A stretch of 51,429 nt of DNA. Source: Candidatus Doudnabacteria bacterium (lineage in GTDB: Bacteria; Patescibacteriota; Doudnabacteria; UBA920). Both the position numbers and the translations under genes were made by a program. The stretch is from positions 1 to 51,429 of the forward strand of contig JAHFJI010000002.1 in the NCBI GenBank assembly GCA_023245955.1, read 5' to 3'. Below the pieces are notes generated by a model, which was not told the DNA's origin, ran no database searches, and was given only the letters and a program-made list of their open reading frames with translations. Each line of letters opens with the position of its first letter. The stretch's first letter is position 1. Below are positions 45,331-49,640 of the stretch, one piece after another.

Positions 45331-46206
45331 CTATTTAAGCAGGTTTAAATGCAAGTGCGGACCTGTAGCCTTTGAAGTCTTTACATACGTACCACAATTA
45401 GGAGTTGTAGAACCAGATTCATTCAGTATCCTAAAGACGCCCGAAGTCTTTACTGTGGAACACAACTGGTCCCAAGTAGTACTTCCAAGTAAACCAATAT
45501 CAACACACGTACCTGATTGCGTATGACACTTGCTTGCGTGCCCTTGTCCATATGAATCATTAACTTTGAACTGAGCCCCAGCTGATGTAGCTATTTGTTT
45601 CAGTTTTCTAAGTGCCTCAAGAACATTGGGACAAGTTTTGTTAGTATCGTACTGGGTAAATTCACCTTGTGGAATATCTACCAGCTGGCCACCGGGGCAA
45701 TCTGTAATGACTGGCCCGGATGGCACCACGCCAACAGGGTTTGTTGCCCCATCTTCATGGCCGATAATCGCCCAATCTATTTGTCCTATTTGATCTGGAG
45801 TAATGTTTTTAATACTGAGTAGTTCTGGATTAATTTGCTTTAAGAGTAGGAAGCCCACAAGAAGCATGGCAATGCCTAAGAGTGACGTAGTAATAAAACT
45901 CTTGGCCGTACTCACCTTGCCAGTGTTACCACCAGAAAAGATGTACATATAACCAGCAATAATAATCATGAACACGGCAGTGATGCTGGAAATAATAAGT
46001 GCGTACTTGTAGAGCTGGTTTACGCAGTCAAACAGGTCGGTGTTGTGGCTAGTACCCGTAGCAGGCTCTGTAATAGGCGTAGTAGATGGGGTACAAGGTA
46101 TATCAAAAGTAGCGGCCCGGGCGAAGATAGGCACAGCAACAAGCACTAGACTGTATAAGCTTATAAAGATAATAGATAAAATTTTGTTTTTATTCTTGGA
46201 TATCAT
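45331..46206 (-). CDS. pilin-like membrane module fused to an M15/LAS-type zinc peptidase-like domain
   Basis: The N-terminal signal/TM region plus LYKYALIISSITAVFMIIIAGYMYIFSGGNTGKVSTAKSFITTSLLGIAMLL resembles a TrbC/VirB2-type T4SS pilin-like pattern. The C-terminus has CHTQSGTCVDIG and GPHLHLN (H..D and HxH). Confidence 0.55.
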   Translation of the reverse strand: MISKNKNKILSIIFISLYSLVLVAVPIFARAATFDIPCTPSTTPITEPATGTSHNTDLFDCVNQLYKYALIISSITAVFMIIIAGYMYIFSGGNTGKVSTAKSFITTSLLGIAMLLVGFLLLKQINPELLSIKNITPDQIGQIDWAIIGHEDGATNPVGVVPSGPVITDCPGGQLVDIPQGEFTQYDTNKTCPNVLEALRKLKQIATSAGAQFKVNDSYGQGHASKCHTQSGTCVDIGLLGSTTWDQLCSTVKTSGVFRILNESGSTTPNCGTYVKTSKATGPHLHLNLLK

Positions 46207-46219
46207 ATTGTTTGTCCTA

Positions 46220-46319
46220 CTTGATGGGCACCATCTAACACAATGCTACTTATATAGTTTAATGTGGTGCGCTCATCTTAACTTATTAAATAACTGCATG
46301 TTAGATGGTGCCCATCAAG
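46220..46319 (-). promoter_or_regulatory. 21-bp perfect inverted repeat in the leader of the 45331 gene (copy 1)
   Basis: cttgatgggcaccatctaaca (46220-46240) and tgttagatggtgcccatcaag (46299-46319) with a 58-nt spacer. The proximal arm ends 13 nt upstream of the ATG (first base 46206). Confidence 0.6.
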
Positions 46320-46347
46320 ACATGCCTCGTAACTCATAACCCCATCC

Positions 46348-46869
46348 TCATTCCAATGGTAAGCCATCCGGACAAAAACTTAATGGTAAGTCGGTTGGAT
46401 AAGTGTACCCTTTTGGACCACCAATTTTCCAGAACATAGCCAATTTGCAAGCATCAAGTGGGCTTATTTCCAACGTGGCAAGCAACGCATGCTCTGCCTC
46501 TTGCCGAACTTTTTCGTTAGGCGTGGACAGGAAGAGATAAAAATAATTTCCCACATATACATATTCTAGCGTATATTCTGGACTATTGTGCAATACTACT
46601 ACTTCCATGCCAAACTCGTCTTTTGTAGTTTGAAGCGTGAAAAAATTATTTACCGTAATAGAGCCGGAATTTGTAGGCAGTGTTATAGCTCTAGTATTTG
46701 GCAGTTTATTTGGTGAAAATATTTGCATAGATGTGGGCACTACTCCCCCGCTTCCCGTGCTTGGTTTGTTTGTGCTTGGGCCAGTACCAGAAAAAAATGC
46801 AAAATAACCGAGCACTAAAATTACGAGACCAGCTAATATAAATATTATAATTTGCTTTTTATTTTCCAT
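46348..46869 (-). CDS. membrane-anchored hypothetical protein
   Basis: The ATG at 46869 gives MENKKQIIIFILAGLVILVLGYFAFF (a TM anchor). It is preceded by the same 40-nt leader as dnaB. Confidence 0.5.
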   Translation of the reverse strand: MENKKQIIIFILAGLVILVLGYFAFFSGTGPSTNKPSTGSGGVVPTSMQIFSPNKLPNTRAITLPTNSGSITVNNFFTLQTTKDEFGMEVVVLHNSPEYTLEYVYVGNYFYLFLSTPNEKVRQEAEHALLATLEISPLDACKLAMFWKIGGPKGYTYPTDLPLSFCPDGLPLE

Positions 46870-46912
46870 AATTGTCCACGTATACACTGATAACACGGAT
46901 TACACAGATTGT
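46870..46912 (-). promoter_or_regulatory. conserved leader abutting the start codon (copy 2 of the dnaB leader)
   Basis: aattgtccacgtatacactgataacacggattacacagattg, compared with 16709-16748. The two copies share ataacacggattacacagat exactly. Confidence 0.5.
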
Positions 46913-48059: not shown

Positions 48060-48068
48060 ATTGCTTTA

Positions 48069-48168
48069 CTTGATGGGCATCATCTAACACGGTGCTATTT
48101 ATGTAACCTAACGCTAGATTGTCCACTTAGCTTATTTAATAACTATATGTTAGATGATGCCCATCAAG
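48069..48168 (-). promoter_or_regulatory. 21-bp perfect inverted repeat in the leader of the 47007 gene (copy 2)
   Basis: cttgatgggcatcatctaaca (48069-48089) and tgttagatgatgcccatcaag (48148-48168). It differs from copy 1 by a paired C/G to T/A change. Confidence 0.6.
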
Positions 48169-48214
48169 GCGTTACATTCCTCATAACTCAAAACTTATAG
48201 TTCAAGACTTTCGT

Positions 48215-49516
48215 CTATGGCAAGAAATCTCTTGGATTATACGTATAGCCAAAAGGCACTGTATATGGACCGTAAGTCTTGCTGTACTTACCAGGAGAAA
48301 TACCAAAGCCATCACAGTCAAAAACAGTGAAGTGTAAGTGGTAACCCCTATCTGGACCATAGAGCAACCTGGTAGTATTCCCTGTGTTGCCCTCGTAACC
48401 AATTACGTCTCCTTGCCCCACAGCTTGGCCAGCTTTTACCTTAAAGGTACGCATGTGTCCATATAAAGTAATTATACACACAGAGCCAGTAGTCGTCTTT
48501 AAGTTGTGCTTAACGGTACACCAGTTTCCATACGAAGCGTCACCAGTATCGCAGGCATTTACTGTGCCGTCTACAGCTGCATAAATTGGTGACCCGGCCG
48601 GAGCTGCTATATCTAAACCATTGTGAAAATTATAGCCAAGCGCTGTAAAACCAGTCTTGCCGTACCCCTGTGTAAGTATCCCCTTCATGGGCATGTCCAA
48701 GCTCCCCTTTTTTGCCGTAATAGTTTTATTTCCAAGTTTAGCCCTAACCTGCGCGTCCAGGTCTTCCATTTCTTTCTGCAGGTTTGCTTCTTCATCCTTA
48801 CTGCTAGATAGTAGCTTTTGATAATTCTTTTCTACCCCACGAGTCTTATCTAGCAAATTTTGCCTGTCTCGCTCCTGCGCCACCAGCCCCGATTTAGTAG
48901 CCTTAAGCTGTTCAGTTAATTCTTGTAGTTTACTAACCTCGGTTTTTAAGTTTGCTTGCTCGGTTTCTAACTTTGCCTTAACCGTTTTTATGTTTTGGAC
49001 TATTTGATATATCTTATCTTGAGCTGTGTTAGTGTATTCTAGTTCGTCTAAGAAACTAGAAAAATTGGATGTACCAAAAGCAAGCCTAAGAAACGAACTA
49101 TCGCCAAGCTCATTTAGCTGGACAATAAGCTCTTTTAAGACTTGCTTATTTTTATTTATCTCGGCCACCCGTCTATCTATTTGAGTTTGCAACTCCTTAA
49201 TTTGCAGGTTTGCCTCTTCAATTTGGGTTTCTTTAGCATCTATAGAAAGCTGAGTTGTTTTAATTTGCGTGTCGTAAATAAATATTTCATTTTTTAAAGA
49301 GGCCTGCTTTTTGCGGGTTACATCAATTTGACCCTGGAAAGACTGAATTTGCTTATTTATGGCATCAAGTTTTTCCTGTACTTGTGTTTGTTTAAACTTT
49401 ATCTCATCCACATCCGCCGCCTGAGCCCAGAAATAACCAAAAACAGCCAAGGACGAACAAATCCCAACAAATAAAACAATTATCTTAAAATGTAACTTAT
49501 TTTTCCAAAAACCCAT
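48215..49516 (-). CDS. M23 family metallopeptidase with an N-terminal TM anchor and long coiled coil
   Basis: HNGLDIAAPAGSPIYAAVDG, LYGHM, GNTGNTT and YHLHF. The start is ambiguous (TTG 49555, ATG 49534 or ATG 49516). Confidence 0.85.
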   Translation of the reverse strand: MGFWKNKLHFKIIVLFVGICSSLAVFGYFWAQAADVDEIKFKQTQVQEKLDAINKQIQSFQGQIDVTRKKQASLKNEIFIYDTQIKTTQLSIDAKETQIEEANLQIKELQTQIDRRVAEINKNKQVLKELIVQLNELGDSSFLRLAFGTSNFSSFLDELEYTNTAQDKIYQIVQNIKTVKAKLETEQANLKTEVSKLQELTEQLKATKSGLVAQERDRQNLLDKTRGVEKNYQKLLSSSKDEEANLQKEMEDLDAQVRAKLGNKTITAKKGSLDMPMKGILTQGYGKTGFTALGYNFHNGLDIAAPAGSPIYAAVDGTVNACDTGDASYGNWCTVKHNLKTTTGSVCIITLYGHMRTFKVKAGQAVGQGDVIGYEGNTGNTTRLLYGPDRGYHLHFTVFDCDGFGISPGKYSKTYGPYTVPFGYTYNPRDFLP

Positions 49517-49640
49517 GCACTGTAAGTATAACATGCAAAAGGAGCAACTTAACAATTAAACCATTAAACATAAAGCAATACCATGTCTATTGTACTCTTC
49601 TTGTTAAGTTGTTAAGTTGCTTAATTGTTATTTTGTACTG

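Follow-up and report, generated by a model that had tools for sequence, protein, structure and literature searches.

Why are enzymes predicted to cut the cell wall joined to what looks like a pilin, and which system would such proteins serve? This question is raised by two genes, hereafter gene A and gene B, in a 51,429-nt stretch of chromosomal DNA from Candidatus Doudnabacteria bacterium (assembly GCA_023245955.1, contig JAHFJI010000002.1), the whole of which we refer to as the window. They belong to a set of four co-directional open reading frames on the minus strand at 45331-49516, which encode, in this order, an M23 peptidase, the gene A protein, a small membrane protein, and the gene B protein (Table 1). 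The reading that we favor, tentatively and at a little less than even likelihood, is that the two fusions are a pilin-anchored, VirB1-like wall-breaching component of the type IV secretion system (T4SS) of Patescibacteria. The initial annotation of the window had described the 350- and 291-aa products as paralogs with a common N-terminus and differing C-termini, and this is what BLASTP shows, with 78% identity over the first 155 residues (E = 1e-75) and no similarity beyond. The co-directional unit that it had described, with its membrane-anchored and coiled-coil M23 members, was likewise recovered with every frame in place, and the motifs it had quoted (FQEANCGG, GVMQI, H-x7-D, and HLH) are all in the translations.

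The shared module, which spans residues 1-146 of both proteins, starts with a signal peptide (ending in ...FARAA), followed by a Cys-x-Pro...Cys segment and two hydrophobic helices with the basic loop GGNTGKVSTAK between them, and closes with a neck of consensus QINPxLLxIKNITPxQIxxxxW, after which the paralogs part abruptly. Residues G92, G93, A101, and K102 of the loop are invariant in the aligned modules. Hydropathy windows fall at residues 6-38, 65-93, and 101-127 (about 102-132 for the second helix of gene A), and helices are found at residues 2-31, 56-90, and 95-125 in an AlphaFold2 model of the gene B protein. A signal peptide followed by two hydrophobic helices with a short basic loop between them is also the layout of the PF18895 (T4SS_pilin) family, against which the two proteins score 20.1 and 20.8 bits (E = 4-7e-4) and the isolated module 22.0 bits, all under the gathering score of 26.6 bits. 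At the level of the family, PF18895 matches all 16 aligned modules (E < 0.01, best 5.7e-10), five of which also match TrbC/VirB2, and 98 of the 111 representative relatives (best 1.6e-44), and precomputed PF18895 matches are listed for many homologs. Conversely, a hidden Markov model (HMM) of the module finds tandem pilins of 94-170 aa in the Saccharibacteria loci L027-L039 (loci and proteins of relatives carry L and P numbers throughout), with E values from 1e-7 to 1e-18, and in one of these loci, L036, the pilin array adjoins genes for a VirB4-like ATPase (TraG P-loop, 2.6e-30) and PrgI (1e-10). Comparison of the module profile with PDB sequences gave nothing meaningful. The family-level searches provide strong support for homology between the module and VirB2/TrbC-type T4SS pilins, which is the relationship first proposed for the window copies, themselves below the PF18895 cut-off.

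The fusions share further traits with the VirB2-like pilins of Patescibacteria (PF18895; Wang et al. 2023, PMC10633639; Quinonero-Coronel et al. 2025, PMC12102498), since both are restricted to or expanded in this group, with several paralogs per genome. They are nonetheless unlike ordinary pilins. The latter are small stand-alone subunits of ~95-170 aa, found in arrays beside virB3, virB4, virB6, or prgI, whereas the gene A and gene B proteins (350 and 291 aa) are two to three times longer, carry a neck and a catalytic head, and lie outside any T4SS locus, at a terminus-proximal housekeeping site with no T4SS gene nearby.

The lytic transglycosylase head that had been proposed for gene A is supported by Pfam SLT (PF01464), which matches residues 205-301 well above its cut-off (E = 1.4e-9; 37.9 vs. 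21.3 bits), and by the motifs FQEAN, which holds the catalytic Glu, GVMQI, and AYDGG. This Glu is kept in the related proteins P0011, P0012, P0013, and P0015. The M15/LAS-like assignment of the gene B head is upheld by its predicted fold and its conserved His/Asp/His-x-His residues and not by any curated Pfam sequence model: the head matches no Pfam family at E ≤ 0.1 and no PDB sequence at E ≤ 10, and its hhalign probability against M15_4-type heads is 0.1%. In the AlphaFold2 model, the predicted local distance difference test (pLDDT) score is ~80-92 over most of residues 170-260 and ~60-80 toward the C-terminus. The top Foldseek matches in the PDB are Hedgehog N-terminal domains (probability 0.98-1.0, target TM score 0.50-0.55, E = 0.04), followed by LdcB, VanXYc, VanY, MepA, and Ply500. 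Nearly all top matches share this one fold, a few histidine kinases are interspersed (probability ≤ 0.16), and none of the matches reaches E ≤ 0.001. In BFVD, the matches are phage M15 and D-Ala-D-Ala carboxypeptidases, with an E value of 0.045 or weaker. Six residues of the head (H223, H228, D236, E263, H284, and H286) are invariant in 11 homologs that are 38-82% identical, and the His/Asp/HxH residues of this type of head, which we call LAS-a, align with the H-x-x-G-x-A-x-D...H-V-H of a second type, LAS-b (hhalign probability 90.5%, E = 1.4e-6). We accept the gene B head as a putative LAS/M15-like subfamily outside Pfam coverage, in which these residues would bind zinc and support catalysis.

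How common are pilin-like modules that bear such heads? At E ≤ 1e-3, 31,288 cluster representatives match the module profile, of which 4,266 still match at E ≤ 1e-10, and an extension of at least 90 aa follows the module in 152 of the 172 closest proteins. Once stretches of low complexity are masked and a minimum coverage is imposed, the heads of these relatives form 25 sequence clusters (plain single linkage merged 128 heads through Gly-rich linkers and two-headed proteins). The most frequent are LAS-b (42 heads), LAS-a (26), SLT (23), SLT_3 (17), an unnamed type (10), Peptidase_C39_2 (5), and Peptidase_M15_4 (4). The other 25 heads fall into small clusters of 3, 3, 2, 2, and 2 members and 13 singletons, among which are CHAP, Amidase_2, a GDSL esterase combined with SLT_3, a weak glucosaminidase-like match, CAP, and Cys-rich unknowns. 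Between them, the recognizable heads are predicted to target glycan strands, stem peptides, amide bonds, and probably O-acetyl groups. A single chain may carry both activities, as in the L014 protein (P0012), where the module is followed by LAS-a and SLT heads. Pairs of module and head are also visible in precomputed Pfam annotation.

The nearest relatives are metagenome-assembled genomes labeled Candidatus Saccharibacteria, Candidatus Doudnabacteria, or Patescibacteria group, which confirms that the window stems from the candidate phyla radiation (CPR). In three related loci (L001, L002, and L003), the gene order gltX, M23, A, small protein, B, arfC, methyltransferase, rpmA, pyrG, rplI, ftsX, ftsE, and prfB is kept, while the core made of A, the small protein, and B is also present in L012, and A together with B in L008. 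The genes are spaced by 20-50 nt in the related loci that carry them, which indicates an operon, and since a single syntenic site on the chromosome bears the same gene order in six or more Patescibacteria genomes, this cluster is not due to chance. The six orthologous loci compared at this site all pair a glycosidase in position A with a peptidase in position B, and the types vary: SLT with LAS-a in the window, SLT_3 with LAS-a in L001, SLT type 2 with LAS-b in L002, SLT_3 with C39_2 in L003, SLT type 2 with LAS-a in L008, and SLT_3 with LAS-b in L012. These comparisons show that heads have been exchanged by recombination at the neck among related genomes, for which the conserved module and neck are an obvious homology arm. 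The notion of swapped heads on a shared module, first voiced for two genes, is thereby supported far more strongly by the survey of relatives than a single window could have done.

While the heads are exchanged, the modules of one genome are kept alike. Genes A and B share a tract of 175 nt that is 100% identical, with 0 differences in 57 codons. The flanks of this tract (53 and 39 codons) contain 23 and 17 synonymous and 18 and 13 nonsynonymous differences, with about 65% of the third positions differing. A recent duplication as the source of the identical tract was ruled out because the flanking synonymous sites are near saturation. Among related genomes, the modules are 69-91% identical within a genome compared with 41-65% between genomes, the exception being the close pair L001/L003 (74-86%), and the longest identical tracts are 175, 336, 43, and 41 nt within genomes and at most 23 nt between them. 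The alignments show that the modules within each genome have been homogenized by repeated gene conversion.

In the T4SS-linked role that we favor, the proteins would be exported by Sec and their signal peptide cleaved, leaving the hairpin in an N-out/C-out topology with its basic loop in the cytoplasm and the head tethered by a flexible Gly/Pro linker at the outer face of the membrane. There, the gene A head would cut glycan strands and the gene B head would cut peptide stems or cross-links. By co-assembling with pilins at the secretion platform, the fusions might open the peptidoglycan locally, as a VirB1-type component built onto a pilin subunit. We favor this role for three reasons: because the anchor belongs specifically to a T4SS pilin family and is homogenized, because the T4SS cluster of Southlakia epibionticum holds the same parts as separate genes, and because most Patescibacteria with VirB2-like pilins, which are widespread in this group, are without a recognizable VirB1, in place of which other glycosidases may serve (PMC12102498). 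In the S. epibionticum cluster, where the enzyme genes flank virB4, SEML1_0006 combines two lysozyme-like domains with a Cys proteinase, SEML1_0007 has a C-terminal Hedgehog/DD-peptidase domain, SEML1_0008 is VirB4, and SEML1_0014-0019 are PF18895 pilins (PMC10633639, Tables S1-S2). SEML1_0006-0008 and 0017-0019 are scored as essential in Table S1 of that study, the main text of which describes the pilin series as essential for epibiotic growth. In the one Patescibacterium that is genetically tractable, the T4SS and its VirB2-like pilin array are essential for epibiotic growth, and what they do has been termed completely unknown (PMC11665869). As Rosetta-stone links between these parts, the large family of pilin-hydrolase fusions points to a joint action of pilins and wall cleavage.

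The closest functional parallels to such a component would be PrgK of pCF10 and TraG of pIP501, which are presented, in the account of them given in PMC12102498, as VirB1-type hydrolases of monoderms with an N-terminal membrane anchor followed by SLT and CHAP domains. Like them, the fusions are predicted to be membrane anchored and to cleave both glycan and peptide, and the bifunctional layout is matched by the L014 protein. They differ in that each activity mostly has a paralog to itself, a pilin hairpin takes the place of a plain transmembrane segment as anchor, the peptidase is mostly LAS or C39-like rather than CHAP, the genes lie outside a T4SS operon, and the heads are interchangeable between close relatives.

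Several observations weigh against the T4SS-linked role. Neither the window nor the 10 kb that flank the orthologous loci on each side contain a T4SS gene (VirB4, VirB6, PrgI, or VirD4). The window modules are under the curated PF18895 cut-off (20-22 vs. 26.6 bits), and the LAS call for the gene B head leans on weak Foldseek E values (0.04) and a model with a mean pLDDT of 64. In addition, the setting is that of a housekeeping, terminus-proximal region, and the operon begins with an EnvC-like gene. The ftsE and ftsX genes (33283-34975, and in the same relative place in L001-L003) are ~13 kb from the latter, or ~8 kb without a prophage that lies between, and a dif-like site is found in this interval, all of which suits a role in division of the cell itself.

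In the EnvC-like product of 433 aa, a hydrophobic segment at the N-terminus precedes an extended coiled coil (Pfam matches to residues 38-186 are weak and of coiled-coil type only), and the M23 endopeptidase that had been predicted for it is recognized by the Peptidase_M23 HMM far above its cut-off (3.3e-22; 78.9 vs. 28.7 bits). In phmmer, its residues 66-383 align to residues 49-360 of chain 8tzk_E, from the FtsEX-EnvC complex of Vibrio cholerae (8TZK), so that the alignment spans both the coiled coil and the LytM domain, and orthologs of 429-433 aa are encoded directly upstream of the fusion genes in L001-L003. The protein has the layout of EnvC, which, in Escherichia coli and V. cholerae, belongs with PcsB, CwlO, and RipC to the coiled-coil hydrolases controlled by FtsEX, and ftsEX is nearby. 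EnvC of E. coli, which is without metal ligands, serves as an amidase activator. In contrast, the 433-aa protein is probably an active endopeptidase itself, because the H-x3-D (in HNGLDIAAP) and H-x-H (in GYHLHFTV) motifs are kept. It may act in the divisome and share no more than synteny with the fusions, and ftsEX and the EnvC-like gene around the dif-like site may form a terminus-proximal neighborhood for cell separation.

This protein and its surroundings lend substance to a first alternative, which we consider somewhat unlikely, namely that the fusions are housekeeping autolysins for the cell's own growth or daughter separation, with the hairpin merely an anchor that would replace the wall-binding domains of other monoderms and hold a glycosidase and a peptidase at the membrane, where they would act with the EnvC-like M23 protein under FtsEX. 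Such a function would fit a locus that is inherited vertically and keeps its place in six or more genomes, among housekeeping genes that in the window comprise dnaB, recR, cysS, adk, map, rplA, prfB, ftsEX, rplI, pyrG, rpmA, and gltX. It would also fit an operon that starts with a protein aligning to EnvC over its coiled coil and LytM domain, the nearby ftsE and ftsX, a location beside a dif-like site at the turn of GC skew, as in a division-related region, exactly one glycosidase and one peptidase head per genome, and a membrane tether that confines the heads to the cell's own wall, with no T4SS genes near the locus. Autolysins, however, act on a chemistry that is conserved, so swaps between unrelated folds are unexpected, and yet L001 has a LAS-a head where L003 has C39_2 despite modules that are 74-86% identical. 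Moreover, the anchor is specifically of a T4SS pilin family and under concerted evolution, rather than a generic transmembrane helix, and the same types of enzymes are found inside the essential T4SS cluster of S. epibionticum.

Head swapping can also be read outward. In a second alternative, which we deem unlikely, the fusions would polymerize with short VirB2-like pilins and display their heads on the surface or at the tip of a pilus, where these would digest the wall of the host at contact, and head swapping would follow the chemotype of the host's peptidoglycan, much as in polymorphic-effector systems. The C-terminus of F-type pilins is surface exposed and tolerates peptide extensions, which is in line with such a display. 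So is the architecture of the fusions, with a conserved delivery-type N-terminal module and hypervariable C-terminal heads swapped exactly at the neck, drawn from a large repertoire that includes the nonwall CAP domain. Tandem modules point in the same direction: in 24 of the 172 closest relatives, 2-8 pilin-like hairpins follow one another in a single polypeptide of 290-900 aa, some of these "poly-pilins" with a lysozyme-like head as well, and the relatives with 3-8 modules suggest that the hairpins pack side by side (examples of poly-pilins are P0034-P0036, P0042, P0043, P0048, P0053, P0057, P0062, P0111, and P0172). The essentiality of pilins for epibiotic growth is a further point in its favor, and when Paceibacteria are co-cultured with their hosts, genes with a T4SS-pilin domain rank among their most highly expressed unknown genes (PMC10936435). 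On the other hand, no pilus has been demonstrated for a Patescibacteria T4SS, heads of 15-22 kDa on all subunits would hinder one another sterically in a helical filament of the VirB2 type, the locus has no linkage to T4SS genes, and viral or mobile contigs yielded no relative of the module.

The comparison with polymorphic toxins and modular phage endolysins is instructive here, since these likewise combine a conserved N-terminus with shuffled C-terminal heads and a sharp junction, which in the fusions is at the neck. Unlike polymorphic toxins, the fusions carry wall hydrolases rather than nucleases or deaminases, their locus is fixed and vertically inherited, and their module was not found on viral contigs. 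Neither does an immunity-type gene covary with the heads: no conserved gene follows gene B in L001-L003, and loci with SLT, SLT_3, and SLT type 2 heads all encode homologs of the small protein, with 32-34% identity between the window (SLT) and SLT_3 loci and 21-24% to the SLT type 2 locus. This 173-aa protein, whose orthologs follow gene A in L001, L002, L003, L012, and L013, consists of a transmembrane helix (residues 2-27), a disordered linker, and a beta-rich domain of ~110 aa with conserved cysteines (ACKL...LSFCP). It has no Pfam or PHROG match, and two database searches returned 2 and 4 homologs. Its AlphaFold2 model, built from 4 sequences with a mean pLDDT of 60, has no meaningful fold match in the PDB (probability ≤ 0.28, for Tdp2 and LINE-1 endonuclease, which we treat as noise) and shows no detectable inhibitor-like fold. 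VirB8-like, lysozyme-inhibitor-like, and immunity-like functions were considered for this protein, and these results speak neither for nor against them.

Directly downstream of gene B lies an inovirus-like prophage of ~5.4 kb with its open reading frames on the minus strand (39755-44803), among which we saw no integrase (Table 1). It is absent from the syntenic site in L001-L003, and its Zot-like protein, used as a query, found no relatives among IMG/VR viral contigs. ARAGORN detected no tRNA or tmRNA in the window, hence no tRNA attachment site for the prophage. The prophage is bracketed by GTCGCACAATGTATGTTGTACGAC on one side and a hybrid copy, GTCTGACAATGTATGGTCAATGACGAC, on the other. In 24 related loci, a single copy of the 24-bp palindrome GTCGCACAATGTATCTTRTRCGAC is found 0.2-0.8 kb downstream of the fusion genes. 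These include the prophage-free loci L001 (11409-11432), L002 (12882-12905), and L003 (10243-10266), in addition to 21 further loci. We take this palindrome to resemble dif of E. coli. Cumulative GC skew turns, and gene orientation converges, at or near this dif-like site, so that the hydrolase operon is apparently located at the terminus of replication. Full and hybrid copies on either side of the prophage, at such a place, are what would be expected if a filamentous phage that depends on Xer had made use of a chromosomal dif site, as CTXphi does.

Proximity to this prophage raises a third alternative, that the cluster consists of its lysis or entry genes, which we hold to be very improbable. 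The two do abut, the prophage occupying 39.5-45.0 kb, and membrane-anchored muramidases are known from phages. However, the same operon occupies the same site in the prophage-free loci L001, L002, and L003, where the dif-like site is intact, and in the window it lies outside the attachment-like repeats at 39513 and 44965. The GC content of the cluster is 0.40-0.44 against about 0.34-0.37 for the prophage, and a search of 2.9 million viral contigs brought up no relative of the module. Filamentous phages are, in any case, extruded without lysis. A phage origin of the hydrolases was rejected on the grounds of synteny, the attachment-like borders, and the absence of the module from viral contigs.

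Table 1. Coordinates of the fusion operon and of other features of the window
Feature	Coordinates	Strand	Details
EnvC-like M23 (LytM) protein, coiled-coil	48215-49516	-	433 aa from its ATG
Gene A 5' leader, perfect 22-bp-stem hairpin	48060-48175	-	Arms 48148-48168 and 48069-48089; -47 kcal/mol, z = -9.0
Gene A, module + SLT	47007-48059	-	350 aa
Gene A pilin-like module, residues 1-146	47622-48059	-	PF18895 4.3e-4; module HMM E 7.6e-68; neck QINPxLLxxKNxTPxQIGQxxW
Gene-conversion tract, gene A	47725-47899	-	175 nt, 100% identical to 45872-46046 in gene B
Gene A head: Gly/Pro-rich linker, predicted family-1 lytic transglycosylase (SLT), Cys-rich C-terminal tail	47007-47621	-	Pfam SLT and motifs
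Small membrane protein	46348-46869	-	173 aa from its ATG
Gene B 5' leader, same 22-bp-stem hairpin	46207-46326	-	Arms 46299-46319 and 46220-46240; -48.7 kcal/mol, z = -7.7
Gene B, module + putative zinc peptidase	45331-46206	-	291 aa
Gene B pilin-like module, residues 1-146	45769-46206	-	PF18895 6.6e-4 (whole protein), 1.7e-4 (module alone); module HMM E 2.6e-69
Gene B head: putative LAS-type (Hedgehog/DD-peptidase fold, M15-like) zinc peptidase domain	45331-45768	-	Fold and invariant residues
Terminator-like hairpin, 28 nt past the gene B stop	45273-45303	-	GAACTCGCT-ACTAC-AGCGAGTTC then ATTTTGTT; read from sequence
Bracketing copy of the dif-like site	44965-44988		
Inovirus-like prophage	39540-44964		
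306-aa signal + transmembrane protein (prophage)	43883-44803	-	
87-aa major coat protein (prophage)	43365-43628	-	phrog_1646, 3e-5
356-aa signal + transmembrane protein (prophage)	42205-43275	-	
85-aa transmembrane protein (prophage)		-	
Zot/pI-like ATPase (prophage)	41239-41943	-	phrog_197, 1e-15
84-aa putative single-stranded DNA-binding protein (prophage)	40988-41242	-	
Rolling-circle Rep (prophage)	40070-40870	-	phrog_3419, 1e-15; 29-34% identical to Reps of small single-stranded DNA phages
Bracketing hybrid copy	39513-39539		
Adenylate-kinase-family gene	20844-21491	+	215 aa
Adenylate-kinase-family gene	20262-20840	+	192 aa
1177-aa protein	2714-6247	+	Glucose/sorbosone-dehydrogenase beta-propeller + PKD + four PA14 domains

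Two kinds of hairpins accompany the operon. The leaders of genes A and B share an element of ~100 nt with the stem CTTGATGGGCAYCATCTAACAT...GTGTTAGATGRTGCCCATCAAG, with minimum free energies of -47 to -49 kcal/mol and z scores of -7.7 to -9.2, the two copies in the window differing by one compensatory C>T/G>A change. The hairpin is also present in the closest relative, L006 (7880-7995), and one arm is found in L014 (9486-9506), while more distant relatives are without it. Rfam at gathering thresholds gave no match anywhere in the window, and the leader hairpins are not a known RNA family; the element could serve RNase III processing or stability, be a palindrome to which a protein binds, or represent an insertion resembling a miniature inverted-repeat transposable element. 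The hairpin beyond the gene B stop is terminator-like and probably marks the end of the operon. A consensus promoter and terminator scan of 44.8-49.8 kb returned the same counts as shuffled sequence and did not report this hairpin.

Elsewhere in the window, the 1177-aa protein, a combination of a beta-propeller with PKD and PA14 domains, is probably a large surface-exposed carbohydrate-binding protein of the kind proposed as adhesins in the CPR. The two adenylate-kinase-family genes are adjacent, 4 nt apart, and represent tandem paralogs in an otherwise reduced genome.

Every part of the fusion operon is of a known kind, be it the VirB2-like pilin, SLT, the LAS peptidase, or M23/EnvC. As for their combination, we found no description of pilin-hydrolase fusions, head shuffling, or concerted evolution in the literature searched, the coverage of which was incomplete, so that no more than an absence of evidence is meant. 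Pfam recognizes neither of the two LAS-type heads, and for many proteins that bear them the current annotation is just "hypothetical" or "pilin". A fixed locus where heads are shuffled and the anchor undergoes gene conversion offers a clean natural example of domain-cassette exchange. If the host-directed alternative were true, these proteins would arm a T4SS pilus, with lytic transglycosylase, LAS-peptidase, amidase, or Cys-peptidase heads on a filament that drills through the host wall, cassette exchange at the neck would retune the enzyme set to the chemotype of the host, and the type of head would predict the host range of uncultivated CPR bacteria. In the T4SS-linked role that we tentatively prefer, the fusions are candidates for the missing VirB1 of Patescibacteria.

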